The position numbers and the translations under genes were made by a program. Positions 42,827 through 58,743 of a DNA stretch of 64,000 bases are shown one piece after another (position 1 is the first letter of the stretch; each line of letters begins with the position of its first letter). Under the pieces are notes generated by a model. It had not been told where the DNA came from. It was given only the letters and a program-made list of their open reading frames with translations, and did not search any database. The DNA is from an uncultured Nitrososphaerota archaeon. Its GTDB lineage: Archaea; Thermoproteota; Nitrososphaeria; Nitrososphaerales; Gagatemarchaeaceae. The stretch covers positions 320,001 to 384,000 of the forward strand of contig CAWISW010000003.1 in NCBI GenBank assembly GCA_963838925.1. The letters run 5' to 3'.

Positions 42827-42898
42827 GCCACTCGAAAGAGGGTCAGGTCACGGATAAAGGATTCTCGGTTCGGTAAATCGCCTTGCTAGTCGCATCAA

Positions 42899-43106
42899 GA
42901 AGAGATTTCCATCAGCACATCCTTTCTCCGCAAGGGGAGGGGAGAGCTGAGGAGAGCGGCGATAGAAGATCGCGTTGAAGGGGTGGGGGTGTACGCTAGA
43001 AGCCTTCGGGCGACCAGTTCAGCCCGTCCACTACCTATAGCTCAACGTGCGAGTGAAATGCCCCGGCGGAGGGGCAATGAACCCCTGTGCACGGCGAAAT
43101 CACTTT
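42899..43106 (+). ncRNA. Putative structured ncRNA of unknown class
   Basis: No credible ORF; closing stem GAAG.GATTTC/GAAATC.CTTT, G-U-rich GCAA-tetraloop hairpin 42920-42943, GCC-TTCG-GGC, CGTTGA/TCAACG, TGCCCC-GGCGGA-GGGGCA. Confidence 0.6.
43031..43097 (+). repeat. Repeat A copy 1 (3' part of putative ncRNA)
   Basis: CTACCTATAGCTCAACGTGCGAGTGAAATGCCCCGGCGGAGGGGCAATGAACCCCTGTGCACGGCGA. Confidence 0.9.
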
Positions 43107-43151
43107 CATTCGGATAAATCCCGTCCTAGAACAAAGCGGCATACCGGCTGA

Positions 43152-43736: not shown

Positions 43737-43767
43737 TGCAGGCTGGGTTCTGTCGTATCGCGTTCGG

Positions 43768-43786
43768 GATATAGTTTTGTCCGAAC
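43768..43786 (-). promoter_or_regulatory. GTTCGGACAAAA-CTATAT element
   Basis: Match to shared motif upstream of ATG 43736. Confidence 0.7.
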
Positions 43787-43791
43787 CAAGC

Positions 43792-43829
43792 GCCCCGGCG
43801 GAGGCACAATGAACCCTCATGCATTGCGA
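43792..43829 (+). repeat. Repeat A copy 2
   Basis: GCCCCGGCGGAGGCACAATGAACCCTCATGCATTGCGA. Confidence 0.88.
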
Positions 43830-43950
43830 GAATTGCCATTCAGCTCCTGCAATTACGGTTCGACTTTCGGAAACGTACCTTGTAGCCCGTCTAGGACTCA
43901 GATCAAGAGGCTCGTAGCAGACCCTCTCTTCTCGACCCAACTCCCTCTCT

Positions 43951-45507
43951 TCAACCACCGTTCTTGATGGACGTTGCGGAAGTCGTCGTCGTGGTGACGG
44001 TGCTGCTCCCCTCGTTCGACGTGACAACGGTCACCACACCGGACGGGACTGACACCGTGACGTAGATGGTCGAATTGGGATGAACCTGAATCGAAGGGAT
44101 CGTCGCACTATACCCCGGCCCCTGGTTGTAACCGGCCATGAAGGTCACGTTGTAGTAGCCACTCGCGATGAAGGTCATGTTCCCCGCGAGCTGCAGGTAG
44201 CCGGTTCCGTTGACGTCCCCCAGCCTGATGCAGTAGTGGTTTGTCAGGCCCCATTCGCCGTTTGTCGCGTTTCCGAACTGGGTCACGAAGAGTGTCCCAT
44301 TCGTTATGACAGTGCCCTGGTCCGTGGCCACCTTCATGTATACGGTCCCTTTCGGAGCCGGATTCAGCACCGTGTTGAGCGGTGCACCGCAGGCAGGGAA
44401 GTTCACTGTCGTAGATGTGCTCGTTGTTGATGACTGCAGAGTTGTGGAGGCGGAGGACCCGGCCGTGGTGCAACTTGTCCCATAAGTGGTATCAACCGCT
44501 CCAGAAGGAACCTGCAGCGTCACACAGGTGGATCCCGCCCTTTGGCTCGCCGTCACGTTGTAGGTTTGACCACCGTATTCGACGGAGAAAGAATTGGTGG
44601 CGTCCCCGAAGGCATACCATTCTGTGCTCGTGGTCGTGAAGCTCACGAATGCCTCGCCGCTGAAACACGACGGATACACGGAACACGGAACGCACGTGTA
44701 CGGGAAGTCGTAGGATGTCGTCGCGACCGCTCCCGCGACGGGGGCCGAATCGGAGTCCGAAAGCACGCGCAAGTAGACCTCCCCAAAGCACGCGTAAGTG
44801 GACTTCCCCGCCCACGCTACGAGGTTCCCCGCGCAGTCATAGTTCGAGAATTGATAGCTGGCCAGGGTGACCACGCCGGACGGCACGGCGAGCGTAACAC
44901 ACGTCGTCGAATCAGGGTAAGTGCCCCCTGAGAACAAGTATGTGTTGCCGGCATAGCCTACCGTAAAATTGTAGCCCCCGGCGATGTTGTCTGTTGAATT
45001 ATTGGGAATGTCGAACCATCCCGACGACCCTTCGCTGACTCTGTCAAAGTAAAGCGTCTCTGTCGTATGGAACTCTGCGGCGTTGCAGCCCGTCTCAAAG
45101 GCGGCGCTGACGGCAGGCGCGCCTTGCTGAACCGGCATCCCAGTGGTGTCTGACACGACCTGCAACTCCATCGTGGCACCGCCCGGGGGAGTGCAGTTGG
45201 TCATGGTGGCGTTCATCTCGGTGGACGTCGTCAGAGAGCTAGAGAGACTCACGTTTGCCGAGTAGGTGCTTTGAGTGTCGGCAATCCTCGAAACCGTGGA
45301 AGAGGTTGAGGTCTGTGAGGTCGCCACGGTTTCGGTCCCTTGGGACGTCGAAGCTGTCGTGCTCGTCGTGCTGTTAGGTAACGAGCTGGTCCCCTGTGAA
45401 AAGAAAGCCGCGGTTATTGCAACTAGCCCAACTGTAATGGTAACAAGAGCAATCGAGAGGTATCGTGCCGCAAGGGCGGTCCTCTTTTGACCGACTTCAA
45501 ACCTCAT
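43951..45507 (-). CDS. Secreted protein with three internal Cys-containing beta-sandwich-like repeats
   Basis: TM plus Thr stalk; V.SD...P...Y..T......VT..VPSG.V three times. Confidence 0.8.
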   Translation of the reverse strand: MRFEVGQKRTALAARYLSIALVTITVGLVAITAAFFSQGTSSLPNSTTSTTASTSQGTETVATSQTSTSSTVSRIADTQSTYSANVSLSSSLTTSTEMNATMTNCTPPGGATMELQVVSDTTGMPVQQGAPAVSAAFETGCNAAEFHTTETLYFDRVSEGSSGWFDIPNNSTDNIAGGYNFTVGYAGNTYLFSGGTYPDSTTCVTLAVPSGVVTLASYQFSNYDCAGNLVAWAGKSTYACFGEVYLRVLSDSDSAPVAGAVATTSYDFPYTCVPCSVYPSCFSGEAFVSFTTTSTEWYAFGDATNSFSVEYGGQTYNVTASQRAGSTCVTLQVPSGAVDTTYGTSCTTAGSSASTTLQSSTTSTSTTVNFPACGAPLNTVLNPAPKGTVYMKVATDQGTVITNGTLFVTQFGNATNGEWGLTNHYCIRLGDVNGTGYLQLAGNMTFIASGYYNVTFMAGYNQGPGYSATIPSIQVHPNSTIYVTVSVPSGVVTVVTSNEGSSTVTTTTTSATSIKNGG

Positions 45508-45598
45508 TACTACTCGTTGCGAAAGAGCGGTTGGAGATACTTACAGGTTGCGCACTAATGTTCTAGGCCTATCCAAGCCGGAGTCGAGGTCCCACACC

Positions 45599-45632
45599 CG
45601 GCGGAGGCGCAATGAACCCTTATGCACGGCGA
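45599..45632 (+). repeat. Repeat A copy 3
   Basis: CGGCGGAGGCGCAATGAACCCTTATGCACGGCGA. Confidence 0.9.
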
Positions 45633-45721
45633 TTGCCCGCATTTTCTCAAAGCTACCGGGAGCTGGAACGTTCGGAGACAAAGGTATTAGTGAGCAGGAG
45701 GGCCTTCACGCTCCGATCTCC

Positions 45722-47005
45722 ATGACACTGCCGACGAACAGCGACAGGAGACTGGTCTACGTAGCCGCGGCGATAATAGTCGGCGTAGTGCTCGTATCGG
45801 CAGCAATCATACTCCCTCCAGCCATCCATCAGACGAAGACAGCGCCACCATCGACCTCGACCACGGTATCTCAACCATCGGTCTCGACTAACGCCTCAAG
45901 CACGACAGCAGACGCGACCGGGCTCCGACTTTCGCTGGCCATAAACAATGACGTGATAGCTGAAGGGGGCAGCATCTCAATCAACATCACAGATTTCAAC
46001 ATACTGCCGGTCAGTAACTCACCCCAGCCTATCAGCATCTTGAGGCTCGGCACGAGCGCGTGCCCTACATCGTTGCCCCTTGGTGTTGGGATATTCCAGG
46101 GCGACTTCGACGCCGGAAACGTCTCCAGCGCCCAGCCGATGGATCTCTACCAACCAGGAGTCTACAGCTGTCCCGGCATTCCATCGGGCGGCTACTCCTA
46201 CACCTTTGAGCCGGAGAGCGACAACGTGAACCTCTCCGTCGGGACGAGCACTGCGACGCACACCGTTACAGACAACGGCACGACTAGCGTGCAGTACATC
46301 GTCACGAATCCCACATACGTCAAGGACGCGTCCGCAACTCTGCAGTATTCGGGCTATTGGACGGGGGAAGCGACCTTCACCTTCTCGAACGCCACCTTTC
46401 ATTCCTTTGGTGCGGGGGAGTACACCATCGAAGCGGTCGACTTGTGGGGCCACGAGGTGTTCGCCCACTTCCAAGTAGTCCCGAACCCTGCATCGTCGGC
46501 CACAACCACGACGATAACGGTTGCTGCACCCGGCCAGTGTCCTGCAGGGAACACTTGCGCTTCTTTCAGCTACAACTCTGACGGCCAGGTCAAGGTGGAT
46601 TCCGTCAACGCGACCCAGCAGGCGTGCTTCAACTGCGGAGTCGTGAATGGGAACGGTCACTCGTACGTGTACATTCAGGTGACGTTCGAGAACACAGGCA
46701 GCTTGCCTATCTACATCCCAGACGGCTCGGCAGTGATTTCAACGTCGCCCTCGTCGAACTCCTCTGTGCTCCAGCAGGTGGTCTCGGCCCAGTGCGCAGG
46801 AACATATTCGATCCTGGAGCTCGACCCCGGGAAGAGCGCCACATTCTCAGGTCCTTCCTGCGAGGACGGATTTGCATACCAGATGGTCAATCCTGGGACC
46901 GTGACCCTCACTCTCAGTTTCAATTGGACGACCAACTCGCAAGCTTCGACAAATCCGACCGACTTCCAAGAGAAAACCACAATCTTGGCGCAGCTCACTT
47001 TCTAG
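45722..47005 (+). CDS. Secreted multidomain protein (family B)
   Basis: TM; GLRLSL...ESDNV...SGYW...GEY...DLWG; GTTCGGAGACAAAGGTATTA at 45670. Confidence 0.8.
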   Translation: MTLPTNSDRRLVYVAAAIIVGVVLVSAAIILPPAIHQTKTAPPSTSTTVSQPSVSTNASSTTADATGLRLSLAINNDVIAEGGSISINITDFNILPVSNSPQPISILRLGTSACPTSLPLGVGIFQGDFDAGNVSSAQPMDLYQPGVYSCPGIPSGGYSYTFEPESDNVNLSVGTSTATHTVTDNGTTSVQYIVTNPTYVKDASATLQYSGYWTGEATFTFSNATFHSFGAGEYTIEAVDLWGHEVFAHFQVVPNPASSATTTTITVAAPGQCPAGNTCASFSYNSDGQVKVDSVNATQQACFNCGVVNGNGHSYVYIQVTFENTGSLPIYIPDGSAVISTSPSSNSSVLQQVVSAQCAGTYSILELDPGKSATFSGPSCEDGFAYQMVNPGTVTLTLSFNWTTNSQASTNPTDFQEKTTILAQLTF

Positions 47006-47043
47006 TTAGGCCGTGGCATTAGTGTCGGGCGAGATTGAACTCT

Positions 47044-47072
47044 CGGCGCAGGTGCAATGAACCCTTATGCAC
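47044..47072 (+). repeat. Repeat A copy 4 (3'-truncated)
   Basis: CGGCGCAGGTGCAATGAACCCTTATGCAC. Confidence 0.85.
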
Positions 47073-47079
47073 AGTTATG

Positions 47080-48792
47080 CTAGCAGAGCGTCAGGTTTGA
47101 TACCAGCGACACCCCGTCGTAGATGCTTAGCGCCCCGCAAGCGCCTGGGCCGACCATGCCCTCCGCGTCGACCCACTCGGGGCTGGTCGAGGAGCTCACT
47201 ATGTTGAGGAATGAACCGGGCGAATCAAAAGTGGCCGCGATGGTCCCGTTGTACCCTATCAGTCGGACGGTCGTCCCGTCTCCCACGATCACCAACGAAG
47301 CACCGTTGACGAATGCCAGCGGGTTCCCGTAGCCGGTGTCGTTCCAGAGGATGTTACCACTTGAGTCGAAGAGGAGCTTACCGACGTTGCCGCCCGAAGC
47401 TATGTATCCGCCATCGGAAGACATGAAGAGCGGCTGGACAGCGGTGTATGCCTGCCTCTTCCAGAGGACGTCGCCATCTTTGCCGCTGAAGTAGTAGACG
47501 CTCCCGTTCTCGCCGTTCACGAACGTCCCCACCGCCACCCTGGAGCCGTCGCTCGACATCTGCACGAAGTTCACGCCTTCGCCTTGATTGCCAATATGAC
47601 TCCACAGAAGGCGACCTTGCGAGTCGAGGTAGACCACTCCCCAGCTGAAATCGGTCCGGTTGGGGAGCAGCATGTACTGCACCGCGCTCACGACGTAGTC
47701 TCCTTGGCCCGACGTAGCGATGTGCATGCCCGAGCCTCCGTAGGGGAAAGTGTAGTTCCAAAGTACTGAACCAGCGTCATTCAAGCAGAGTATGCCCCAG
47801 TAGTAGTCCGCGAATATCCTTGAACCGTCTGGCGACATCCCCAGCGAAATCACCGAACCCTTCGCGGTGACGTTCCAGAGCTGTGCGCCCTCCCCGTCGA
47901 AGAGAAAGAGGACACCGGTATCGCTGACATGCCCGAGCCGCTCCAAACCGTATCCGCCCGCTGCGACATAGGACGCATTCTGAGAGACAGCCACCGACTC
48001 TATGTTGCTATTGTTGGTGACACGCCTCCAGAACACCCCTTGGGATTGGCTCCGCAACGAGACCAGGTACACGGAGCCGTTGCCGCCGCCTCCTATGCTG
48101 ATTGTCCCCACTGCGGCGTAGCCTCCGTCCGGACTTATGCTCTCAGCATCAGGCCTCTGGGTAGCCGCTTGTCCTGGAGGCGGAGGCCCTCCACCCTGCT
48201 GGGAATACTGAATGTTGAAGTTTGTGAAGTCCCAGTGCTCGGCGGAGATCAGCCAGACGCCTTCCGCAGGGAAGTAGGCATAGGAATCGTTCGCCAAGAC
48301 AGCACCAGCGAAGTTCCCCCAGATGTTGCTGTGGCCGGAGAACGAGAAGTTCCAGTCCACCAACACCGCGCTTGTCGAGGGCAGGATTGTCTGCGTCACG
48401 TTCGTGATCTGGAACGACGACATTCCACCTATCGCGGTCTCAAGTGTGAGTTTGATGTCGGTCCGAGACTCGTAAGAGCCGCCAAGGCCTTGAGTAGTTC
48501 CTACCCACGTCATCGTCCCATTGGGTGCGAAGAGATCGGCGACTGCCGAGGCGTTCCTCGACTCGAGCAGTGAGACATGCATCGCGTGCGTTGCGTTGAC
48601 CATCTCGACGGCCTGTGAGGGAGGGGACGGGTAACTCGAGGACGCGTTGGTTGTGGTCGATACGCTCGATGCCGAGGAGGTCGCCGTCTCAGTACTGCTC
48701 TGCAGACTCACCAGAGGCAACGACACCAGGGTGAGAACGGCGATCATCACAAGCGCCTGCGCCGCGACGAACAGACCTTCTTTTCTTCTCAT
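47080..48792 (-). CDS. Secreted protein: family A domain fused to PQQ/WD40-like beta-propeller
   Basis: WLISAEHWDF domain then repeated S.DG..V/A...G.V..F...G..LW blades. Confidence 0.82.
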   Translation of the reverse strand: MRRKEGLFVAAQALVMIAVLTLVSLPLVSLQSSTETATSSASSVSTTTNASSSYPSPPSQAVEMVNATHAMHVSLLESRNASAVADLFAPNGTMTWVGTTQGLGGSYESRTDIKLTLETAIGGMSSFQITNVTQTILPSTSAVLVDWNFSFSGHSNIWGNFAGAVLANDSYAYFPAEGVWLISAEHWDFTNFNIQYSQQGGGPPPPGQAATQRPDAESISPDGGYAAVGTISIGGGGNGSVYLVSLRSQSQGVFWRRVTNNSNIESVAVSQNASYVAAGGYGLERLGHVSDTGVLFLFDGEGAQLWNVTAKGSVISLGMSPDGSRIFADYYWGILCLNDAGSVLWNYTFPYGGSGMHIATSGQGDYVVSAVQYMLLPNRTDFSWGVVYLDSQGRLLWSHIGNQGEGVNFVQMSSDGSRVAVGTFVNGENGSVYYFSGKDGDVLWKRQAYTAVQPLFMSSDGGYIASGGNVGKLLFDSSGNILWNDTGYGNPLAFVNGASLVIVGDGTTVRLIGYNGTIAATFDSPGSFLNIVSSSTSPEWVDAEGMVGPGACGALSIYDGVSLVSNLTLC

Positions 48793-48859
48793 GCTTGGTC
48801 ACCGTGTGGAACAATCGGTAGCAGCCGAGGGCTGCTTCGAGAAGAAGGGCCCGCCTCAG

Positions 48860-48877
48860 TAAATAGTTTTGTCCGAG
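48860..48877 (-). promoter_or_regulatory. CTCGGACAAAA-CTATTTA element
   Basis: Shared motif upstream of 48792. Confidence 0.65.
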
Positions 48878-48923
48878 CTGGGCGCGAGGCCGTAAATAGG
48901 TCCGATGGCCATTCCGGCACGAC

Positions 48924-49163
48924 ATGAATAAAGGAACGATTCTGCTTCTTGCTGCCGGAGCTTGCGCGATAGGCTGCGCCTTCGTCTGTTTCTTCTTTTT
49001 CGTTCCAATAATAAGGATGGACATAACGCCTTGCGAACCTAATGGTGCTGGGGTTGGATATGCTTCTTTGTCATATCACTTGTTCTACATGGGAATGAAC
49101 TATCTTGGAAACCAATTAGTCTGGATGACGGGAAGTAATGCCAGTTGCATGGGGCTTCCCTAA
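48924..49163 (+). CDS. Small membrane protein
   Basis: 79 aa, N-terminal TM, AT-rich. Confidence 0.55.
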   Translation: MNKGTILLLAAGACAIGCAFVCFFFFVPIIRMDITPCEPNGAGVGYASLSYHLFYMGMNYLGNQLVWMTGSNASCMGLP

Positions 49164-49225
49164 GATTATCATCACCCGCGACTGGACACCCGAGGCGAAT
49201 CACCCGACCATTGGACAGAACCGCT

Positions 49226-49258
49226 GGGCGGAGGCCCGATGAACCCTGTGTATGGCGA
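49226..49258 (+). repeat. Repeat A copy 5
   Basis: GGGCGGAGGCCCGATGAACCCTGTGTATGGCGA (1-nt deletion). Confidence 0.82.
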
Positions 49259-49394
49259 AGCCCTTCTACTTCATTTTAGACAAACGCAGCGGAGCCCGCG
49301 CCCCTCGGAACGAGACTTCGAAGCCCAACCCTCCGCTAATCACGTTCGGACAATCCCTTAACTGGGACCTCGCTCTGTCGTTAGAACGTTCGAA

Positions 49395-50273
49395 ATGCGT
49401 CCGATTGCTGGCGCTGCCGTTGCCGCAGTCATTGTGGTCGCGGGGCTTGGAGGATACCTCATAGCTACAGGAGCGATGTCGCCCGGCTCTTCGCAGACCA
49501 GGTCACAGACGACAGTCACCGTTACTGCTTCGAGCACGGAAACCGCAACCGCGGCCTTCAACGGATCATCGTACTACAGCGACAATGTAACAGGCATCAT
49601 GATAACGGAGAACCCGGGGGCATTCCACTTCGACAACGGGTCGGTGACGTTCATGGGAGTGGAGTTCCAGACGATCTGCACGGATTACGGCGCTGGATGT
49701 CCGGTCCCGGCTCCCCCTCCAGGAACAACGTTCGTGGTGCCCTCCGGCGCAAGCATCACCCTGAACGTCACCTTCCCAGACCACAGCAGCGAGATTGTCG
49801 AGGGGGGACCTTTATTTGCAGGGCCTGTTCGCTCGGATACATTCTCTCATCACATCGATCCTCAGGCGGGGATTATGATAGTGTACAACGATTCGGACCC
49901 CATCTACAAGTCCTACCTGCTCGTCTCCATTCCGGAGCCGACACCGAGCCAAGCGACGAACTCCAGCACATCGGGCGACGCAGGGACTTCCTCGAATACC
50001 TCCGTCGCGACCTCCACGGCGACCGAGACCCTCACCACGCAGGCCTCCCAGGCTACGACGAGTTACGCTGCTCCGACTTCTGACTGCACCTTACTGGGCG
50101 GTACCGTCACGGTGACGACCACTGTCACTGCCTTCGCGCCGCCCGCGACGTCTACCGTCACGGTGACGACAACGACAGTCTCGACCAGCTACACCCAAAC
50201 CGTCACCGTGACCAGTTGCACATACACCGAGCCGACGGTCACTTCTACCGTCACGACCACAGCGAGCCCGTAG
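49395..50273 (+). CDS. Secreted protein with Thr-rich C-terminal module
   Basis: TM; GTTCGGACAATCCCTTAA at 49344; TVTVT repeats with Cys pair. Confidence 0.8.
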   Translation: MRPIAGAAVAAVIVVAGLGGYLIATGAMSPGSSQTRSQTTVTVTASSTETATAAFNGSSYYSDNVTGIMITENPGAFHFDNGSVTFMGVEFQTICTDYGAGCPVPAPPPGTTFVVPSGASITLNVTFPDHSSEIVEGGPLFAGPVRSDTFSHHIDPQAGIMIVYNDSDPIYKSYLLVSIPEPTPSQATNSSTSGDAGTSSNTSVATSTATETLTTQASQATTSYAAPTSDCTLLGGTVTVTTTVTAFAPPATSTVTVTTTTVSTSYTQTVTVTSCTYTEPTVTSTVTTTASP

Positions 50274-50276
50274 GGA

Positions 50277-50310
50277 CGGCGGAGGCGCAATGAACCCTTA
50301 TGCATGGCGA
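50277..50310 (+). repeat. Repeat A copy 6
   Basis: CGGCGGAGGCGCAATGAACCCTTATGCATGGCGA, 3 nt after the stop of the preceding gene. Confidence 0.9.
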
Positions 50311-50396
50311 AGTCACTCATTTCCATTGCCGAAGCTCAGTCTAACTACCAAGTTCAAAAGAGACCTCCTGACTTCTACCTCACGCAGGGTTGCGGA

Positions 50397-51530
50397 GTGC
50401 CAAAGCGTGTTCCACATTTCCGTTCCAGCCGCTCGGCGGCGAGCATCTTTCTTGCCCTCTTGGTCGTCTGCATCATGCTCGCTCCCTTCGCCAGAGCCCA
50501 AGATGCAGTCACGTCCATCACTGTCGGATACTATCCTGATGCGGCAGCGTACGACGCTTCAAAGGGAGAGGTGTTCGTGGCCAATTCTGGCTCCGAGAGC
50601 CTGTCCGTGATATCCGACAGCAGCAATCAGGTTATCGCGACGGTAAGCTTGGGGAGCGCTCCGAATGATTTGGCCTATGATCCCGCAAGAGGAGAAGTGT
50701 TCGTGACCGATGCGGCCGCTAGCGACGTCCTCGTAATATCTGATACCACGAACTCAATCGTCGACACCATAGCGTTGCCCCCAAACAGTCAGCCCATGTA
50801 CATCGAGTACGACCCCTCGAAGGGCGAGATGTTCGTAGCAGATCGCGGCTCGGCCACAATCTCAGTGATATCTGATAGCGCCGACACGATTGTCGCGACC
50901 ATAATCATGCAACCCCAAACAAGCTCGTTTGTATACATGGCCTACGACTCTGCCAAGGTCGAGATGTTCCTCACCAATCCTGTGACTCACGACGTTTCCA
51001 TTGTCTCAGACACAACCAACACCGTCATCGCAAACGTGACCTTGCCTGCCATAGCAGATCCCACGAGCATAGTATTCGACCCCGCGAGGGGCGAGATGTT
51101 TGTGGCGAATTTCGATTCAAACATCTTCGTCATATCGGACAGCAGCAACACGCTAGTCGCGACGATGAATGCAGTTAGCGGATCAAAGGCCGAGGTCTAC
51201 GACTCGGCTCGGGGCGAGATTTTCGTAGCGAATGCTGACACTGCCTCGATCTCTATCATATCCGACAATAACAACACGGTCTTGACGACAGCGTTTTTGC
51301 CGATGGCAAGTACGCCCTCTGACCTTGCCTATGACTCCGCCAAGGGAGAGGTGTTCGCAACAGACTCAGGGGGTACCACAGTCTACGTCGTATCAGACGC
51401 ACAATCATCGACCATCACTACAAGTTCCACGGCCCCAGAATTCTCCCAAGGCGACACAGTCATCGTGATGGCGGCAATGATAATGTGCATTGCATTGCTG
51501 ACAAGGAACTATCGTTCAACGTGCGAGTGA
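50397..51530 (+). CDS. YVTN/YncE-type beta-propeller surface protein with PEF-CTERM-like tail (start uncertain)
   Basis: Seven YD.A(K/R)GE(V/M)FV...SVISD..N..(V/I)AT repeats; APEF + TM + RNYR. Confidence 0.85.
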   Translation: MPKRVPHFRSSRSAASIFLALLVVCIMLAPFARAQDAVTSITVGYYPDAAAYDASKGEVFVANSGSESLSVISDSSNQVIATVSLGSAPNDLAYDPARGEVFVTDAAASDVLVISDTTNSIVDTIALPPNSQPMYIEYDPSKGEMFVADRGSATISVISDSADTIVATIIMQPQTSSFVYMAYDSAKVEMFLTNPVTHDVSIVSDTTNTVIANVTLPAIADPTSIVFDPARGEMFVANFDSNIFVISDSSNTLVATMNAVSGSKAEVYDSARGEIFVANADTASISIISDNNNTVLTTAFLPMASTPSDLAYDSAKGEVFATDSGGTTVYVVSDAQSSTITTSSTAPEFSQGDTVIVMAAMIMCIALLTRNYRSTCE

Positions 51531-51571
51531 AATGCCACGGCGGAGGTGCAATGAACCCTTGTGCATGGCGA
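51509..51571 (+). repeat. Repeat A copy 7 (long)
   Basis: CTATCGTTCAACGTGCGAGTGAAATGCCACGGCGGAGGTGCAATGAACCCTTGTGCATGGCGA. Confidence 0.9.
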
Positions 51572-51645
51572 TTGCCCGCACTTTCAACAAGCTAGCGGAG
51601 CCTCCACACGGAATAATAGGCGCCGCCGCTATTCCCGCATCCAAG

Positions 51646-52326
51646 CTGAAGGCAAAGACGAGCGCCTATGTGGCCGCTCAAATCGCCGCTTTTGCTGCCG
51701 TGTTGGTCCTGATCTCATTGCCACTCGAGTCAGGGAGCCAGCAACCGATTTCGGCGCCCTCCACCAGTCAAGAGCTGACCTTCACATCGTTTAGTTGCAC
51801 TTCCACCTCGAAGGCCGTCACTAACGTGTTGCCCGTCAGCTCTGAATCCCAATTGCTTTCAATGGTCAACAGCAGCTTTACCGAGCATCTCCTGCATCTC
51901 GGCTCTAGAAACACCTTCGCGGCAACGAACGACTTCGAGGATGGGGCGCAAATGGCCTGGTCGGGGTCGGGGTTCGCCAACGCCGGAGGCTTCGCAGGAA
52001 ACTACACTGGGTTGCGGGCAATCAACGAGGTCTACGAGGGGCTCTTGGAAATCCCAACTTCACTCTCCATTGTCAACGAGAGCTGGACTTTGGCCACAAC
52101 CGGGCCAGAGTCGGCCGTGGTCCACTCTTCACTGGGATTCGAGGGATACGGCAACGCAACGCATGGGGAGGGCTTCGACGCCCAAGTCGTTGGAACAGAC
52201 TATTACGTGGCCGCAAACGGCTGGCAGATTTCGCAGGAATTCTGGAATTTCACGAGCTTCGACTGGCAATACTCGTTCTCAACAATGTTTGGCCCTGGCC
52301 CATCTGACGATTCGTGCTACCACTAG
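51646..52326 (+). CDS. Membrane-anchored NTF2/SnoaL-like protein (family A), probable CTG start
   Basis: LKAKTSAYVAAQ...VLVLISLPL aligns with N-termini of 48792 and 55090 genes; HLLHL.SRN, WQISQEFWNF. Confidence 0.78.
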   Translation: MKAKTSAYVAAQIAAFAAVLVLISLPLESGSQQPISAPSTSQELTFTSFSCTSTSKAVTNVLPVSSESQLLSMVNSSFTEHLLHLGSRNTFAATNDFEDGAQMAWSGSGFANAGGFAGNYTGLRAINEVYEGLLEIPTSLSIVNESWTLATTGPESAVVHSSLGFEGYGNATHGEGFDAQVVGTDYYVAANGWQISQEFWNFTSFDWQYSFSTMFGPGPSDDSCYH

Positions 52327-52341
52327 AGCATCCAGCGCCAG

Positions 52342-52396
52342 CTACCTATAGCTCAACGTACGAGTGAAATGCCCCGGGGGAGGCGCAACGATCCCT
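52342..52396 (+). repeat. Repeat A copy 8 (long 5' side, divergent 3' end)
   Basis: CTACCTATAGCTCAACGTACGAGTGAAATGCCCCGGGGGAGGCGCAACGATCCCT. Confidence 0.9.
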
Positions 52397-52568: not shown

Positions 52569-52802
52569 ATGCCCATGGCTTTCGTGCTTATCAACGCAGA
52601 TTTAGGGGCCGAGGAGGAGCTGCTAAAGTCGCTCAGAGGGTTGGAGTTCGTACGCGATGTGTACGTCGTCTACGGAGTTTACGATATTATAGCTCGCGTC
52701 GAGGCCGACACCATGGAGAAGGTCAAGGAGACCATCACGTGGAAGATTCGCAGGCTCGACCGCGTCAGGAGCACCCTGACGATGATAGTCGTCGAGGGCT
52801 AG
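52569..52802 (+). CDS. Stand-alone Lrp/AsnC ligand-binding (RAM) domain protein
   Basis: MPMAFVLIN...VYGVYDII.RVEA...IRRLD.VRSTLTMIV; TTTTATA box at ~52532. Confidence 0.92.
   Translation: MPMAFVLINADLGAEEELLKSLRGLEFVRDVYVVYGVYDIIARVEADTMEKVKETITWKIRRLDRVRSTLTMIVVEG
52761..52802 (+). repeat. Repeat B copy 1 (3' end of Lrp gene)
   Basis: CGCGTCAGGAGCACCCTGACGATGATAGTCGTCGAGGGCTAG. Confidence 0.92.
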
Positions 52803-52887
52803 CTACACAACTCTCTGTCGCACGATAATCTTCGTGGCGACCGACAATTCCATGGCGAGCGAGACGGCCATGATAATCGCGAGATGA

Positions 52888-53682
52888 TTGAAGATGAACG
52901 GGAGAAACGCACTGTTCGCGCTCTTCGTGCTGCTCACACTTGTGTTCGCCGCCCTTTCCGTGCTGGAGTATGAGCAGGTCCAGACGTTGAGCTCACAGAC
53001 TCGTTCATCAAGCACAACAAGCACCACGAGTACGTCGCTCGGCCTTTCTTTCCCTCACACCGAGTCACAAATTAGCTCATTCTGCAACTTCGGACAACTA
53101 GTCGGTGGACCGGGCAGGGAAGACGCTGAGAATGCAACCGGTCAGACTGTGACCACCTTTAACATCCCGGTTCTCGTCATGAAGGTTCCCACCACGGCCT
53201 ACGCTTGCGTGACATACAAATCCTTGGTCAATGGGCCGGCGCCCTTGAATTACACTGCGGGAGAGAACTACACGCTTCCTTTTGCGTTCAGCCTTCGGGT
53301 CTGTCACAGGATAGGCCAGTCAGGGATGGGCTGCCTGCCATCCCAAGCTCTCTCAGGAGTCGCGTTCCCTTCTTCAATTGCTCTCACGAACTCGACTACG
53401 ACGTTCACGGTGGTCTACAACATCACATCGACGGTTGGATCGACGGGATTCTACGATGACGCGGGGGATGTCTACTGGGGTTATCCTCTCGCCGTAGGGT
53501 ACCAGGACTCCCAGCTGAATTCGTCAGACTTTAGCCTTGTCCTTCCCTTGGGAAGCGGAGGAGGGCTCTATGAGCCGATTCAGTCTACTTCGGTCAGCGT
53601 GATTGGGATGGACTGGACTTACGTCCAATTCCAGTGCGTCATCACCAGACTAAGCTGCTCCTTTGGACCTGTCGGCGGCTAG
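52888..53682 (+). CDS. Secreted hypothetical protein (cassette between repeat B copies 1 and 2)
   Basis: N-terminal TM, Ser/Thr linker, Cys-containing domain. Confidence 0.78.
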   Translation: MKMNGRNALFALFVLLTLVFAALSVLEYEQVQTLSSQTRSSSTTSTTSTSLGLSFPHTESQISSFCNFGQLVGGPGREDAENATGQTVTTFNIPVLVMKVPTTAYACVTYKSLVNGPAPLNYTAGENYTLPFAFSLRVCHRIGQSGMGCLPSQALSGVAFPSSIALTNSTTTFTVVYNITSTVGSTGFYDDAGDVYWGYPLAVGYQDSQLNSSDFSLVLPLGSGGGLYEPIQSTSVSVIGMDWTYVQFQCVITRLSCSFGPVGG

Positions 53683-53712
53683 GGAGGCGCCCTTGGGACA
53701 ACAAATAACCAA

Positions 53713-53754
53713 CGCGTCAGGAGCACGCTGACGATGATCGTCGTCGAAGGCTAG
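53713..53754 (+). repeat. Repeat B copy 2
   Basis: 39/42 identical to Lrp 3' end; all three changes synonymous. Confidence 0.92.
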
Positions 53755-53765
53755 GTGTTAATGCT

Positions 53766-54014
53766 TCAATCGTAAGCTGAGCTTCTCGGCGCAATCTTGA
53801 AGACGAGTATCTCGTCTTGAGGAAGTATCGAGTACAGGACGCGAATGTCGCCGACTCTCAGCCTGTAAGAATTCAAGGCTCCCTTGAGCTTCTTGCAACC
53901 GGGCGGATACGGAGTGTCGATAAGTTCGGAAATCTTGGACCCCAATCGAGCCTTCAAGTCCGCCGAAGCACTGTCGAGGCTTTTCCTTGCCTTGGTCGAC
54001 AGGTATACCTTCAA
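53766..54014 (-). CDS. relE: RelE/ParE family toxin
   Basis: PYPPGCKKLKG...YRLRVGDIRVLY...FKIAPR..AY. Confidence 0.9.
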   Translation of the reverse strand: MKVYLSTKARKSLDSASADLKARLGSKISELIDTPYPPGCKKLKGALNSYRLRVGDIRVLYSILPQDEILVFKIAPRSSAYD

Positions 54015-54184
54015 CGCTTGCTTTTCCTGACGAAGGGAACGGTCTTGCCTTCCTGATGCTCCTTCAGCGCTTCTCTTCGGGCAGCCTTGTCGTCCTCGGA
54101 CATCTGCTCTGCCAAGGCGTCCTCGATTGAATCGAGCCGCTCACGTATCAGCTTTAGTTCTCTCTCGACCGCCGACGCCATCAT
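54011..54184 (-). CDS. Cognate antitoxin (57 aa; not in ORF track)
   Basis: MMASAVERELKLIRERLDSIEDAL...REALKEHQEGKTVPF; TTGA overlap with toxin start. Confidence 0.82.
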   Translation of the reverse strand: MMASAVERELKLIRERLDSIEDALAEQMSEDDKAARREALKEHQEGKTVPFVRKSKR

Positions 54185-54236
54185 CGATTGATTAGTCAGC
54201 TGAGATAATTAAACACAACAGCGCTCGAATCATCCG

Positions 54237-54260
54237 GACGATGATAGTCGTCGAAGGCTA
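54237..54260 (+). repeat. Repeat B copy 3
   Basis: GACGATGATAGTCGTCGAAGGCTA, 23/24 to Lrp 3' end. Confidence 0.88.
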
Positions 54261-54274
54261 CACGGGATTTCGCT

Positions 54275-55090
54275 CTAAGTGCAATCCTCGTTAGGGCCTG
54301 GAAACAGACAGACGATGGGCGAGGCGACCGCCGGACTTCCAGAGGGACCAGTCGCCACAAAGAAGCTCAGCGTGACGAGGCCGCCCCACGCGTCGCCAAC
54401 GGCTATCGTGTAGTTGGCTCCTGGGTCCCATTGCGTTGGCGCCCCAATGTACAGAATTGGGCCTCCGTTAGGCAGGTGAGAGGGATCCCAGTACCCCGCG
54501 ACCCGCACCGAAGCGTTCGAAGAAAACGACTGGCTTAGCGTGTAGTTGTCGTTGCAAATCGCGCAAGCCGGGACCTTCATGGTGGCGTTGTCGCTCTGAG
54601 GCGGGAAGAGGTACCAGAGAGCCGCCCCGTTCTCCATGCAGAGGATGTGCACCGGCGTCCCGCTATACAGCAGTCCCTGGACTGAGGAATCATTGTAGAA
54701 TCCCTTCAGCACCACGAACTCGTATGGCTCGTTCCAGTTGCACCAAGGATCCGGGGCCAGAGGGAATCCTAGAAATGGGAAGTGCCACGTCAGCTGGCCG
54801 CTCGAGGCATAGGCCGCGAAATCCTCTCCGCTGGCGTTTAGAGCGTTTGGGTTCTTGTTGTAGAGCGCAATCGAGAAGGTGATGCTCTGATTCGGCTGGA
54901 TGCCGCCCGCCGCGTTATCTGAGACTTCGAGCGTCAATCCCTGAGCGTCTGTCGCCTGAGCGGAAGTCACGAATCTTTCAATACCGGAGCTCCCGACGCT
55001 GGGCGAACCGATGGGCAGTGAGACGAGCAGAAGCACCCCGACCATCATCAAAGCCAATGCCACTGCGAAGCCTGCTTCCTTCGTCTTCAT
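54275..55090 (-). CDS. Secreted protein (family B)
   Basis: GLTLEV...QSDNA...AGYW...PGANY...DAWG. Confidence 0.8.
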   Translation of the reverse strand: MKTKEAGFAVALALMMVGVLLLVSLPIGSPSVGSSGIERFVTSAQATDAQGLTLEVSDNAAGGIQPNQSITFSIALYNKNPNALNASGEDFAAYASSGQLTWHFPFLGFPLAPDPWCNWNEPYEFVVLKGFYNDSSVQGLLYSGTPVHILCMENGAALWYLFPPQSDNATMKVPACAICNDNYTLSQSFSSNASVRVAGYWDPSHLPNGGPILYIGAPTQWDPGANYTIAVGDAWGGLVTLSFFVATGPSGSPAVASPIVCLFPGPNEDCT

Positions 55091-55218
55091 TTACCAGGCG
55101 TCTTGAGGTCACTGATTCAATATTAATGATGCGAAGCAATCCTCTGCGTAGCCTTGCTGGCGAATAGGAATATTTAGGTCAAGGAATTATATATATTAGG
55201 AATATCACCGCAGAGACC

Positions 55219-55416
55219 GTGAAGCCGCCCTTCCTCGTGGTCGCAAGAAATGGTGATCTGGTCAACAAGTTCGAGCAGGACTCGATGCTGAGGGCCGTCA
55301 ACCTCAAGGACTTTCTGGAGGGGCTCGGGGACTATCAGGAGGTCTCCATCTTCCAGCTCTCCCTCAACAGCGGCCAGAGCAAGGAGTGGGTGAAGCTGGA
55401 CGTCTTCGAGTCCTAG
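55219..55416 (+). CDS. Small hypothetical protein
   Basis: Host-like codons, strong TTATATATA box upstream. Confidence 0.65.
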   Translation: MKPPFLVVARNGDLVNKFEQDSMLRAVNLKDFLEGLGDYQEVSIFQLSLNSGQSKEWVKLDVFES

Positions 55417-55430
55417 GGCGGGCTTCTGCA

Positions 55431-56492
55431 TCATCGCGTTCCCTCGTACATCCTGACGACCGCCCTGAGCTGCGCCCTGCTCAGCTCGACCGGGGGGCTG
55501 GCCTGGGACTTGACCACAATCATCTGCGACTGCGAGGCGGGGCCCGCGTCGGCTATCCGCATCCCGACTGGCTCGCCGCTAGTCGCGAGCAGGCTGCTCA
55601 GGAACGCGGTGTACTGGTCGGGGCTCGGCCAGGTCAGCCTCCCCCCGATTGCCTTGAAGACCTCCATTAGGAGGGGAGGGTGGACGAACTCCTGGGGTGA
55701 AGACGGAACCTTTCCTCGGCCGTCGCGCCCCCGGTCGACCCTCCTGTAGAGTCCAAGGGACATCCCGAAGCCTTTCTCCTGTCTGATGGAGATGACGTCA
55801 TAGGTGCGGGACATCAAAGCTGTCGACCAGTCGTTCTTGCCGATCTTGGAGGCCTGCAGGGAGGGTTGGAGCAGCGCAAGCGCCTGCCCGGAGTCCAGCG
55901 GCAGCAGGTAGGCACCGAGCGCGGAAAGGGAGAGGGCGGTCTCCTTGAGGGCGGTCAATATCGCCTCCTCGGCCGACCGCTCGGTCGGGGCCATCCTTTC
56001 GACCACGACGTAGATGGACGGAGTATCGGAGGCGGACACCATGACGGTCCCGGTCACGCCAGCCAAGGCCCTGCCCACGTCGCGGGTCAACGGCTTCACC
56101 TGGGCGACTGCTACCCACGAGACCGGGAGCGGCGACGACCTGAGAAGGATTGACTCTTTGACAGGCTTCAGCGTGGACCCGAGGGCTGACATCGGGAGCC
56201 GGCCCCAGAGCATCACGAGCACCCCGAGAGCCCCAAAGACGAGCGGGGAGGAGGGGCCGTGGGCGAGGTACCCTAGGAACGCGAGCAGGAAGAGGAATCC
56301 TGCGAGGCCGTACCTGACCGGGAACTTCCCCCTCGGCTTCCCCCTGTCCTGAGACGCCGGCTTGCGCTTCCTAGCCCTCAAGATAGGCGGGAGGAGGAGC
56401 CAGGCGAAGATCAAGAGCGTCAGCTCCCACACTCCCGCGCCGAGAAACATTAGGGCGAGGAGGACCGCCAGAGACTTGCCCAGCCAGCCCAT
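55431..56492 (-). CDS. Membrane protein (4 N-terminal TMs + soluble domain)
   Basis: Hydrophobic hairpins, basic linker; TGATG overlap with upstream RadA paralog. Confidence 0.78.
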   Translation of the reverse strand: MGWLGKSLAVLLALMFLGAGVWELTLLIFAWLLLPPILRARKRKPASQDRGKPRGKFPVRYGLAGFLFLLAFLGYLAHGPSSPLVFGALGVLVMLWGRLPMSALGSTLKPVKESILLRSSPLPVSWVAVAQVKPLTRDVGRALAGVTGTVMVSASDTPSIYVVVERMAPTERSAEEAILTALKETALSLSALGAYLLPLDSGQALALLQPSLQASKIGKNDWSTALMSRTYDVISIRQEKGFGMSLGLYRRVDRGRDGRGKVPSSPQEFVHPPLLMEVFKAIGGRLTWPSPDQYTAFLSSLLATSGEPVGMRIADAGPASQSQMIVVKSQASPPVELSRAQLRAVVRMYEGTR

Positions 56493-57517
56493 CAGTGGAA
56501 CCCCTCGTCGTCGATGTAGGCGTGCCCGTACCTCGAGAAGTCCTCGAGTGCGGGGTGCCGGTGCACCCAGAACGCCCGCCCGTCGGTGTCCACCTTGATG
56601 GTGTCCTCGGGGTTCACCGAAGTAGCGTCCTTGTTCCTCTTCGACGTGTTCTTCGTCAGCTCGAAGCTAAACTTCGCCTCGTGCCCGAGCGTGATCCCGC
56701 CGTAGGGCTTCCCCCTGTCCCAGGCGGCCATCGGGTTTATCGACGCGTGGCTCGTCACGACGACCGCGATGCCGTACTCGACGCAGAGCCTCTGGGCGTG
56801 GGCGAGCAGTATGACCATTCCCGCGCTCCTCGCGGGGAGGTCCTGAGTGCCGAGGAATGCCGACTTGAATGGGGCGGAGATGGAGTCGTAGACCAGCAGC
56901 TTGGCCTTCGTCGCCTCGACTATCTGGTGGAGCGCGGACTGGTAGACCGGGGTGGACTTGAGCCTCAGCTCGACCCTCCCGCCCTCGGAGACTATCTTCT
57001 GCACGTCGTTGCCGTGCAACGCCAGCAGGTCGATGATCTCCGGCATCTGCACGATGAAGATGGACGGCTCCTCAGATTTGTCAAGGTTGACGGTAAAGTC
57101 GGGCGAGAGCACGTCGGCTATCGCGCTCATGTGGTTGTCGTTGTAGGCGACACCGATTCGGTCTAGGGTGCTGCTGATTGCGGTCACCAGCTCGCTCCGC
57201 GACGCCGCCTGGTCCTTCTTCTTGGCGGCGCGCGTGCTCCGCTCGAGCTTGAGCTCCTTGACTTTGATCTTGTCGCCAAACCTCTTCTCGAACCCCGGCC
57301 TCCGGTAGTCGACGAGGTAGCTGAAGTAGGACTGCTCGGTGTCAAGGATAACCGCGCTGCTGCCTGCGGCGACGGTCGAGTACGCGGCCTGCAGCGAGAG
57401 TATGCTCTTCCCGAGGGCCTTCTCGCCGAATATCTGGGTGATGGTCCCCGTCGAGAGCCCTCCGTCCGTCATGATGTCGAGCGCCTTGGCGCCAGTCTGG
57501 ATCTTGTCCATGGGCAT
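56492..57517 (-). CDS. RadA/RadB-like RecA-family ATPase with large insertion
   Basis: IQTG..ALD....GGL..GTITQIFGEKALGKS, LDTE, LLVYDSIS, VVVTSH, PYGG..LGH. Confidence 0.85.
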   Translation of the reverse strand: MPMDKIQTGAKALDIMTDGGLSTGTITQIFGEKALGKSILSLQAAYSTVAAGSSAVILDTEQSYFSYLVDYRRPGFEKRFGDKIKVKELKLERSTRAAKKKDQAASRSELVTAISSTLDRIGVAYNDNHMSAIADVLSPDFTVNLDKSEEPSIFIVQMPEIIDLLALHGNDVQKIVSEGGRVELRLKSTPVYQSALHQIVEATKAKLLVYDSISAPFKSAFLGTQDLPARSAGMVILLAHAQRLCVEYGIAVVVTSHASINPMAAWDRGKPYGGITLGHEAKFSFELTKNTSKRNKDATSVNPEDTIKVDTDGRAFWVHRHPALEDFSRYGHAYIDDEGFH

Positions 57518-58743
57518 CACCTCGAGCTCTCCCAGAACGTCCGGCCTTTTTCGGTCAGGGAGAGCCCGTGGATTGTCCGACCCGACCTCTCCTGCGGCGT
57601 TACCGCGATGTATCCCTCGGCCTGGAGCCTGTCGAATGTCCTCTCGAGGAGATCCTTGTCGAACTCAGAGGAGAGAAACGAAATCAGCGAAGTCCGGGTG
57701 GCGCCCTCGTAGCCCGCGACCTCCTCGAGTATCCGCTTGGCGAGCTCCTCGCCGGCGGTCGGGACGAGAGAGGCGCCCGTCTTGGCCTCTCCCTTCCTCC
57801 CCTCGAACTCCCTCGGGACGAAGACCTCGCTCGAACCGTAGGATGGGTTCTGGAACATGAACATGTTCGGGGTGAGGACGAGGCCGCCCCTGCCTGACTC
57901 GTTCCACGCGGCGCTGGAATGTATCCTGACCGAGCAGGTGTCCATGTAGCCCTTGTCGAGACCGTAGGCCGCGTCAGAGGCTAGGACCTTGGGCAGGGGC
58001 GCCGAGACGAACGAGGTGAGGAACCGCGGGTTCCTCCGGAAGACCGGGCGCTCCTTGAACAGGCGGTTCGCCTCTGTCATGATGATGACGTCAGGCCCGT
58101 GAACCTCTTCTCTGCCGCCCAGCATCGCTAGGAGCTTTGCGAGGAACAGGGCCACGGCCGTCTCCGCGGCCTCAGGCGACCCGGCATTCCTAAAGTTCAA
58201 GACCGCGCTCTTCCCCATAATCTGCCTGACCACATCTTTCTCCCCGACTAGGTTGAGAGACCGGAGAGCCTCCAGCCTGACGCGCAGCCTATCGACGGCG
58301 CGCCCCTTCGCAGAATCTGGGGACTGTATCAGGTCGGCCAGAGACGATGGGCTGGCGACGCCCCGCTCGTTGGCGATGATCTGGGCGATTGCGTTCAGGC
58401 TGGCCTCTTGCTCGAAAGACAGTTCGAGGGAGGTGGAATAGGCGCCGGACAAGAGCTGCGCGTGGACGATGGGGTTGTCCTCGATCCTGATTGAGTCGTA
58501 GAGGAAGTAGGAGACGTCGTACTCGTCGATGTATCCGGAAAGCGAGTCTGAGACGCTGCCGTCCATATCGAGGAGGAGAGACTTCAACCCCGCTTGGTGG
58601 CACGCGTAGGCGACCAGAGGGGCGAGGCGGTTCGCGCCCTGGCCGAGCATCGCGATTCCCCCCTTCAGGTCGTCGAGCTTCACCTCAAACCTCCCGCCCA
58701 ACCGCGTGAACCCCAACCAGACCGAGCTTGTTGCCGAACTCAT
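57517..58743 (-). CDS. HerA/VirB4-like protein with degenerate Walker motifs and C-terminal wHTH
   Basis: VWLG..., IAMLGQGANR (Walker A position), LLLDMDGS, VIIMTEANRL (Walker B position), LQAEGYI...LSLTEKG. Confidence 0.65.
   Translation of the reverse strand: MSSATSSVWLGFTRLGGRFEVKLDDLKGGIAMLGQGANRLAPLVAYACHQAGLKSLLLDMDGSVSDSLSGYIDEYDVSYFLYDSIRIEDNPIVHAQLLSGAYSTSLELSFEQEASLNAIAQIIANERGVASPSSLADLIQSPDSAKGRAVDRLRVRLEALRSLNLVGEKDVVRQIMGKSAVLNFRNAGSPEAAETAVALFLAKLLAMLGGREEVHGPDVIIMTEANRLFKERPVFRRNPRFLTSFVSAPLPKVLASDAAYGLDKGYMDTCSVRIHSSAAWNESGRGGLVLTPNMFMFQNPSYGSSEVFVPREFEGRKGEAKTGASLVPTAGEELAKRILEEVAGYEGATRTSLISFLSSEFDKDLLERTFDRLQAEGYIAVTPQERSGRTIHGLSLTEKGRTFWESSR

Follow-up and report, generated by a model that had tools for sequence, protein, structure and literature searches.

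What is the 3' end of one small regulatory gene doing in three successive places on the same strand of an archaeal chromosome? The question is raised by a stretch of 64,000 nucleotides (nt) (hereafter the window; GenBank assembly GCA_963838925.1, contig CAWISW010000003.1, positions 320,001 to 384,000, in our coordinates G000:C3:320001-384000) from an uncultured Nitrososphaerota archaeon of the Gagatemarchaeaceae. The source genome, G000, measures 1.84 Mb in 3 contigs and is 87% complete. The gene in question, at 52569..52802 on the plus strand, encodes a protein of 77 amino acids (aa) that consists only of the stand-alone ligand-binding (RAM) domain of the Lrp/AsnC type (profile match PF01037, E 1.2e-11), and a relative of this Lrp protein occurs in all 41 of the searched genomes of the order. 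In what follows, the 3' end of the Lrp gene is called the tail, G-numbers denote genomes, and L-numbers denote fetched loci or contigs. Our analysis indicates that the Lrp 3' end is very probably a reused insertion point, at which serial insertions have left hybrid tails of the Campbell type.

The resident tail, the last 42 nt of the gene (52761..52802, +), is followed by two displaced copies. Displaced tail 1 (53713..53754, +) agrees with it at 39 of 42 positions and retains the terminal TAG; its three changes (ACC to ACG, ATA to ATC and GAG to GAA) are all at third positions and all silent, and it agrees at 40 of 41 positions with the resident tail allele of the relative G018. Displaced tail 2 (54237..54260, +) is a remnant of 22-24 nt that matches the resident tail at 23 of 24 positions, with TAC replacing the TAG stop. 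The coordinates, plus strand and match counts given for all three copies by the original prediction, which was made from the letters of the window alone, were borne out. When the last 24 nt of Lrp were used as a 24-mer with up to 3 mismatches, 3 matches were obtained in the window against 0 in each of 100 shuffles, and up to 4 mismatches gave no further copy elsewhere in the 1.84-Mb genome. Read directly from the sequence, the resident tail holds an imperfect palindrome, CCCTGACGA-TGATAG-TCGTCGAGGG. Its core, GACGA-TGATNG-TCGTC, is kept in all Lrp tails, and the same stretch is also coding.

Is this arrangement peculiar to one genome? A comparison of Lrp downstream regions across relatives had been suggested as a check of the original prediction, and the variation that it revealed is strong, with one empty site and arrays of 1-6 displaced ends in 4 other genomes of the same genus and in ~20 of 75 soil and peat metagenome contigs. 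For the relatives, ~18 kb around the best Lrp match was fetched from 20 of the 41 genomes, and displaced ends downstream of Lrp, on the same strand, were found in the sub-clade whose Lrp is at least 95% identical: 5 displaced tails plus one internal fragment in G012, 3 tails in G006, 2 in G009 and 1 in G018, beside the 2 of the window. The empty site is that of G020, where Lrp is followed by 231 nt and then by a flank block of three genes, coding for a 353-aa, a RadA/KaiC-like and a 408-aa protein; in G008 this block is inverted and lies upstream of Lrp. The contig of G003 ends 2.5 kb downstream of Lrp, and strict scans gave no second tail there; a scan allowing 5 mismatches to the consensus core splits off a 361-nt unit behind a degenerate tail. 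In a genus-wide pattern search, the clustered matches all lay downstream of Lrp and on the Lrp strand, and the reversed control pattern gave 1 match in 23 genomes. A further 3 tails, all downstream and on the plus strand, were found in 80 named loci (up to 10 kb on each side, 1.17 Mb), with none upstream or antisense. The closest named records, the Thaumarchaeota archaeon isolates AcS1-27 and AcS1-13 (L042 and L043), have a 100% identical Lrp protein and have been placed in Candidatus Gagatemarchaeum, Gagatemarchaeaceae, formerly Group I.1c (PMC10640624).

The metagenome set consists of the 75 contigs obtained by an exact-pattern scan for the tail, and the ~20 of them with 2-4 tails carry every tail on the same strand. 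Pooled with 5 genomes, the 75 contigs give 120 tails, ~63 of them displaced, although several contigs are near-identical and not all are independent. With the whole Lrp gene as query, all 137 of the 137 Lrp-derived high-scoring segment pairs fell on the plus strand, and this broader query shows that the bias to 3' ends does not come from the use of the last 24 nt as probe. The displaced tails are 20-58 nt long, with one of 99 nt, and their right boundary is the stop codon. In one soil study (4 runs), tail-matching contigs continue after the tail into at least 4 different sequences, two of them recognisable as left ends, one of the S family and one of the small-unit family described below; one contig of the same study has a sequence resembling repeat A, the displaced 3' end of the 23S rRNA gene plus trailer, immediately before the tail. 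Since this population evidence consists of assembled contigs, it speaks to presence only, and gaps in cover and differences in depth are not taken as evidence; one joint, from 52800 back to 52706, comes from a single contig. The claim that incoming DNA repeatedly rebuilt the 3' end of the gene and displaced the old one has held up in this wider sample, where the fragments are always 3'-terminal, same-strand and downstream, and where an empty site exists. At two loci, L026 (G009) and L027 (G008), a stretch of 28 nt copied from the Lrp 5' end (ATGCCCTTGGCTTTCG..) precedes the actual start codon by ~90 nt; because of the position of this copy, the 5' end of Lrp seems to have been likewise replaced and displaced in G009 and G008.

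How would the displaced ends have been formed? The DNA between successive tails is here called a cassette, and one rule holds across the cassette families: the stop codon and the first bases after it track the right-hand cassette, and the left boundary of the tail tracks the left-hand cassette. On the left side of the S family, 4 of the 5 members are preceded by a tail with the stop TGA and then by GATTCCCACAG, compared with a TGA stop in 22 of the 120 tails overall (P = 0.005). The right end of the S family comprises a promoter, a 35-nt piece of repeat A and a 47-nt tail with a variable stop (TAA, TAG or TGA). The junction of the PIN unit is TGA followed by TTGGCGCA, with CGA by mutation in G012; two families of small units of ~340-365 nt show TAG followed by TTC.. 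and TAG followed by C..GTTTCTCC, respectively; family B shows TAG followed by T.ACTT, and the VapBC unit shows TAA followed by A.C. No motif common to all cassette families was seen by eye just after the stop codon. Because the stop goes with the right cassette and the left boundary with the left one, each displaced tail is a hybrid, and one reciprocal crossover between the tail of incoming DNA and the resident gene end would predict exactly such hybrid tails. The GAR polymorphism could locate the crossover through its association with either the left-hand or the right-hand cassette, but this association is ambiguous.

The differences among the copies also point to their origin. In 12 displaced copies from 5 genomes, 28 of the 41 differences are located at third codon positions (P = 5e-6), and the 39 changed codons comprise 26 synonymous and 13 non-synonymous changes. 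That all three changes of the window fall at third positions has a chance probability of P = 0.037. The divergence had been described as silent only, which is true of these three changes but not of the wider sample, with its 13 of 39 non-synonymous codons; silent-only divergence is a property of the small sample in the window. When the displaced copies were set against the alleles of other strains, a second check proposed with the original prediction, the ATC and GAA variants of displaced tail 1 proved to be resident alleles in G006, G009 and G018. From the excess at third positions and the identity of displaced variants with resident alleles of other genomes, the displaced copies thus descend from functional alleles and then decay, in line with the original prediction.

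Small modules, of 0.37-6.8 kb and mostly with promoters of their own, have very probably entered one by one right behind the last sense codon, each bringing its own 20-60-nt copy of the 3' end of the gene. A single reciprocal (Campbell-type) crossover within that copy keeps the gene intact, now with the stop codon of the module, and leaves a hybrid tail at the far side. Repeated rounds push the older modules away from the gene, and the array reads youngest-first, since each new module displaces the older ones outward. We further propose a mechanism for this build-up. The mobile unit would be a small cassette plus its tail, similar to that of an integron, rather than a large decayed element, and the reaction would be carried out in trans. 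As the enzyme, we would prefer a tyrosine-type site-specific recombinase acting on the core GACGA-TGATNG-TCGTC; host homologous recombination between tails is a close alternative and probably adds to the reshuffling. The same process may operate at the 3' end of the 23S rRNA gene, with far larger arrays and with at least one cassette family moved between the two loci. To this full reading, including small cassettes moved in trans by a site-specific enzyme, we would give slightly less than even credence.

The cargo was surveyed in 66 open reading frames (ORFs) located between tails in the window, 4 relatives and 17 metagenome contigs. The families matched are PIN (several models), HicA, HicB, MazE/AbrB, ParE, ribbon-helix-helix, beta-helix/NosD and PQQ-like propeller; none of the 66 ORFs matched an integrase or transposase family, most are without a family, and many have an N-terminal hydrophobic segment. 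The cassettes, separated by tails, range from 369 to 1,700 nt, with one additional unit of 6.8 kb. They are compact, with intact ORFs and little spare DNA, and mostly contain one or two genes; these lie on both strands, and TATA-like blocks are situated at the cassette ends, adjoining the tails. The 6.8-kb unit (L022 7163-14003 in G006, also L038 8841-12774 in G022) encodes a DUF87/HerA-like ATPase (976 aa), a DUF1286 membrane protein and a further protein of 764 aa; in G006 it has four ORFs, whose only matches are DUF87/HerA and DUF1286, with no integrase among them. This unit has the appearance of a defence module, and at its right end it is similar to the DNA upstream of the 408-aa flank gene.

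The S cassette, whose product is a secreted protein of 349-359 aa, aligns over its full length, beginning with the first nt after the tail, in G012, G006, L154 and L189; in G018 the alignment is almost as complete. Its right neighbours are of at least 4 kinds (an NHL-repeat cassette, a 194-aa ORF, the 65-aa gene and the PIN unit), and L126 has the PIN unit and VapBC in the opposite order to G012/L195. Given these differing neighbours and this reversed order, either the tails recombine among themselves or the cassettes insert independently. The left neighbours of the cassettes differ freely, as is expected if newer cassettes enter beside the gene.

In the window, the interval 52803-55430 is best read as four stacked units. 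The body of cassette 1 (52803..53712, +; the unit is 952 nt) holds an ORF at 52888-53682 (+) for a 264-aa protein, Ser/Thr-rich with an N-terminal hydrophobic segment, which is putatively secreted or surface-located and matches no Pfam family. Cassette 2 (body 53755..54236, -; the unit is 507 nt) encodes an 82-aa toxin of the ParE/RelE type (53766-54014, -; PF05016 ParE_toxin, E 2.2e-7, 31.8 bits against a cut-off of 23) and, upstream of it, a putative 57-aa antitoxin (54011-54184, -), which overlaps the toxin ORF by 4 nt and has no family above the cut-off. The predicted pair of a small ParE/RelE-fold toxin and an overlapping small partner fits the layout of type II toxin-antitoxin systems. 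A TATA-like promoter block (54202-54236) in cassette 2 adjoins displaced tail 2; the promoter block and tail together (54202-54260) are common to the last cassette of G012, ~82% identical over 78 nt, whereas the genes to their left differ, being the ParE pair in the window and a 486-aa secreted protein in G012. The third unit (54261..55164, -) contains the gene for the 271-aa family-B secreted protein (54275-55090, -), of which a homologue, 28% identical, is located in cassette 1 of G006. The gene content between the copies is as described beforehand, the toxin cassette matching ParE_toxin and a family-B gene following the third copy.

The family-B unit is followed at 55165 by TAG and GAATATTT, and in G018 this TAG equals the stop of a clear tail before the same 65-aa gene. 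From its position, GGCGAATAG at ~55153-55167 may be the vestige of a further tail, since the homology with G018 begins at that TAG. The fourth unit (55165..55416, +), a promoter and the 65-aa gene (55219-55416), is also present in the metagenome contig L183, where it is bounded by the resident tail and a degenerate tail; because of this bounding it is probably the oldest cassette, and the reading as four units follows from the G018 match at the 55165 TAG together with L183. Beyond it, a conserved distal flank (55431..58743, -) bounds the array in the clade (L025, L026, L027 and L028) and codes for a membrane protein (353 aa), a RadA/KaiC-like ATPase (342 aa) and a third protein (408 aa); no family was found for the 353-aa and 408-aa proteins. 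On both sides of the Lrp locus (36000-52400 and 59300-64000), the window is dense in Ser/Thr-rich, N-terminally hydrophobic proteins, mostly without a Pfam match.

Does the Lrp gene stand alone as a target? Upstream of it in the window, an array of repeat A extends over 42896..52388 (+), and its copies bound cassettes coding for secreted proteins. Seven copies were found by BLAST (42896-43084, 43792-43817, 45597-45620, 49227-49295, 50277-50298, 51516-51577 and 52342-52388) and an eighth, at ~47043, by pattern search only. Inside this array, the segment 50304-51530 encodes a 408-aa secreted protein with NHL-type repeats and has an internal DNA periodicity of 123-135 nt. The large-subunit (LSU) rRNA gene of G000 lies at C3:203899-207577 (-), and the repeat starts within its last ~60 nt. 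After the rRNA operon, 16 partial copies of the 23S end follow on the same strand over 30 kb, down to C3:173619, and one solo copy of repeat A is located on C1. Five relatives (G009, G012, G018, G007 and G015) show the same layout, with 11-32 partial copies behind the resident 23S end, all on its strand and spread over 14-82 kb. Neither boundary of the 23S copies is constant. The cargo of the G000 23S array (C3:173619-204100) includes type I restriction-modification, Fic, Mrr, a NERD nuclease, a SWI2/SNF2 ATPase, a PIN/MazE pair and one insertion sequence (IS; DDE transposase), and none of its 27 ORFs matched a tyrosine-recombinase family.

The copy at 42896-43084 (189 nt) is 98.9% identical to the 23S end, with the rRNA operon 160 kb away and no rRNA gene near. 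That such a piece heads the array suggests that the repeat-A array of the window, or its first unit, may have been transposed from the rRNA-linked island. The Lrp array is the smaller of two gene-end-anchored islands, and a cassette would have passed between the 23S and Lrp loci, since the S cassette embeds a repeat-A piece. No tRNA gene was found in the window, so it is not a tRNA-anchored island, and a scan of 42000-56000 against Rfam gave no family at E <= 1. The original prediction had drawn from repeat A a general capture mechanism that is not tied to one att sequence. This view is plausible, as the unrelated 23S target is organised in the same way and has a cassette family in common with Lrp, but no recombinase could be linked to the arrays, and two site-specific systems or homologous recombination are possible instead.

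Several observations weigh against the proposed mechanism. The left boundaries of the displaced tails fall in classes of ~20-26, 30-33, 38-48, 51, 58 and 99 nt, not at one att length. As single-stranded DNA, the Lrp tail folds no better than shuffles (z -1.35 and -1.88), which is likewise true of repeat A, and the palindrome is possibly a mere by-product of codon choice. Near-duplicate metagenome contigs are common and cassette copies are 67-97% identical, so that some of the seemingly different contexts may be deletions from longer ancestral arrays. The cassettes of the window itself (cassette 1, cassette 2 and family B) have no other copy in any of the fetched loci. Neither a free circular cassette nor an element with both an integrase and an Lrp tail was found, and the tail matches on viral contigs (2 loci in the exact-pattern scan) were rejected as chance in-frame '..TMIVVEG..' motifs in unrelated genes.

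A candidate enzyme is equally hard to place. No tyrosine recombinase lies within 89 kb of the Lrp locus in the three genomes checked (G000, G009 and G018), and the 87% complete genome of G000 yielded no serine recombinase. The one PF00589 match of G000 is a 431-aa protein at C3:13610-14902, with a 30%-identical paralogue at C3:437157-438197. A second protein, a tyrosine recombinase of 443 aa, adjoins a J-domain protein and short runs of 23S tails near the nuo genes in G012 (L202, G012:C7:128001-146000), G018 (L203, G018:C8) and G009 (L204, G009:C3:114001-131000). It is intact in G012 and in G020, whose Lrp site is empty, and carries a frameshift in G018 and G009; no copy of it was found in G000 or G006, both of which bear arrays. 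We set both integrases aside as the array enzyme, because both are patchy and do not track the Lrp arrays. Lrp and 23S tails have no evident common motif, which makes one enzyme for both targets unlikely and favours a homology-driven process. At the locus of the 431-aa recombinase (L021, G000:C3:12443-15976), the adjoining 219-aa ORF resembles, by reading, the C-terminal part of glutamine synthetase and may represent another integration into a gene end.

Could homologous recombination have done all of this by itself? The tails would in that case be portable homology arms at which the host RadA inserts DNA into the resident copy with no dedicated enzyme, and the DNA between two copies of a conserved gene end would loop out or arrive in linear form from a relative. 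We consider this possible, if rather unlikely. It would suit the existence of two unrelated, very conserved targets with the same architecture and a shared S family, the lack of both a common motif and an associated integrase, and the variable length of the tails, including the two variable boundaries of the 23S copies. In addition, the tails are 85-100% like the resident gene while the cassettes that they flank are 70-80% alike between genomes, as gene conversion would give. However, many tails are just 20-31 nt, which is little for recombination of the RadA type. The start of every cassette family coincides exactly with the stop, and ~61 of the 63 displaced fragments keep the right end; such precision exceeds that of illegitimate joints plus homologous recombination, unless selection for an intact ORF explains it. 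The first acquisition of a tail by each new cassette is also left unexplained by RadA.

In a second alternative, which we regard as improbable, integrase-bearing elements or proviruses were inserted serially at an Lrp att site and lost their integrases, the cassettes themselves never moving, and what remains between the old att sites is addictive toxin-antitoxin pairs and selected cargo. This pattern has been documented for thaumarchaeal integrated elements (PMC6563490) and for tycheposon islands (bioRxiv 10.1101/2020.12.28.424599); one large unit, the 6.8-kb HerA/DUF87 block of G006, would agree with it, and integrases of ~430-440 aa are common in the genus. Yet tyrosine-recombinase matches number 0 in the 66 cassette ORFs and 0 in the 27 ORFs of the G000 23S array, the latter having one IS-type DDE transposase. 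The cassettes are compact (369-1,700 nt) with intact ORFs, and the same cassette occurs with identical end points in several contexts and in permuted order. Finally, remnants of whole-gene Lrp tandem duplications or a short-repeat assembly artefact, both of which the original prediction had named as threats to itself, are highly improbable: one G012 copy does reach 99 nt, the L126 and L168 copies are at least 84 nt and one metagenome contig returns after its tail to 95 nt upstream, but no 5' piece was found outside the resident genes with the whole-gene query and only 2 short isolated fragments lack the 3' end, which excludes duplication remnants, while the DNA between the copies consists of unrelated genes and the pattern recurs in 5 genomes and ~20 metagenome contigs, G000 itself being assembled in just 3 contigs.

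Acid soils and peat hold abundant Group I.1c Thaumarchaeota; the present lineage is known here solely from metagenome-assembled genomes. The Lrp locus and the 23S arrays provide a defined place at which gene gain can be read in order, with an empty-site control and recurrent cassettes, and through these arrays gain and loss can be followed in metagenomes. It is conceivable, though on balance doubtful, that soil group I.1c Thaumarchaeota possess an integron-like gene-end cassette system, with the 23S gene as the main platform and Lrp as the secondary one, in which small self-promoted cassettes with gene-end mimics and no recombinase of their own are captured and stacked, change their order and pass between species, either by a trans-acting enzyme so far unrecognised or by homology alone; such a system would be the main route by which these archaea gain genes for defence, toxin-antitoxin pairs and surface proteins. 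If the cassettes themselves are what moves, they would be an archaeal counterpart of integrons on a different kind of site, and this would explain the clustering of toxin-antitoxin, restriction-modification and surface-protein genes beside conserved genes. If they are decayed ordinary elements instead, the arrays would still preserve serial integration at an att site in a protein gene as a clean record that can be dated.

Which known systems do the arrays resemble? Xer-dependent elements (IMEX) and the pdif modules of Acinetobacter plasmids are small, integrase-less modules, often with toxin-antitoxin genes, that are bounded by short sites for a host tyrosine recombinase. The Lrp-tail sites are direct repeats, compared with the inverted repeats of IMEX and pdif modules. 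In the case of integrons and CALINs, the likeness lies in tandem small, mostly single-gene cassettes between repeated sites, in the toxin-antitoxin cargo and in the newest cassette being next to the anchor; these also occur in archaea, and the array need not have an integrase beside it (Ghaly et al. 2022, PMC9668308). An array of small cassettes is indeed what we observe, but no intI lies beside it, the repeat is the 3' end of a host gene and probably not an attC hairpin, the anchor lies inside a functional gene, and the cassettes occur in both orientations with their own promoters, instead of being mostly promoterless and co-oriented with a platform promoter.

The tycheposon islands of Prochlorococcus are described as growing by newer elements that push older ones inward, with partial tRNAs and degraded elements scattered along them (bioRxiv 10.1101/2020.12.28.424599). 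Similar features of the present arrays are growth at a conserved gene 3' end by repeated insertion, scattered partial copies of the target, and adaptive or defensive cargo. In contrast, the same text gives tycheposons tRNA or tmRNA targets and intact elements with a tyrosine recombinase and replication genes, whereas the present arrays are built on a protein gene and the 23S rRNA gene, the host is archaeal, and we saw neither a complete element nor a module combining a recombinase with replication genes.

The closest comparison is with the integrated elements of Thaumarchaeota. Of 68 such elements, 14 are reported to lie in the 3'-distal part of protein genes, one of which is an AsnC-family regulator (AFU58629), which we liken to the Lrp gene at family level only; elements with tyrosine recombinases are said there to form arrays by site reuse, and the elements, of 2.6-140 kb, are defined by carrying an integrase (Krupovic et al. 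2019, PMC6563490). The shared features are the same phylum, a 3'-distal target in a protein gene, flanking direct repeats, an incoming stop codon and an empty site in a relative. As in an integrated element (CIE/iMGE), the direct repeats overlap the 3' end of the target gene and an empty site exists (G020), but the units have no integrase of their own. Compared with the thaumarchaeal elements, the units here are also mostly 0.4-1.7 kb and are stacked up to at least 6 deep, with a recombinase in 0 of 66 ORFs. Our literature searches returned no published account of cassette arrays at Lrp or 23S tails, and the words integron, cassette, mobile, genomic island and toxin are all absent from PMC10640624. 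The class of mechanism, 3'-end integration that rebuilds the gene and stacks the old ends, is already known (PMC6563490; 10.1101/2020.12.28.424599); what differs here is the occurrence of recombinase-free, self-promoted small cassettes with constant ends, their reassortment, the depth of the arrays, and the parallel use of the ends of a protein gene and of the 23S rRNA gene.

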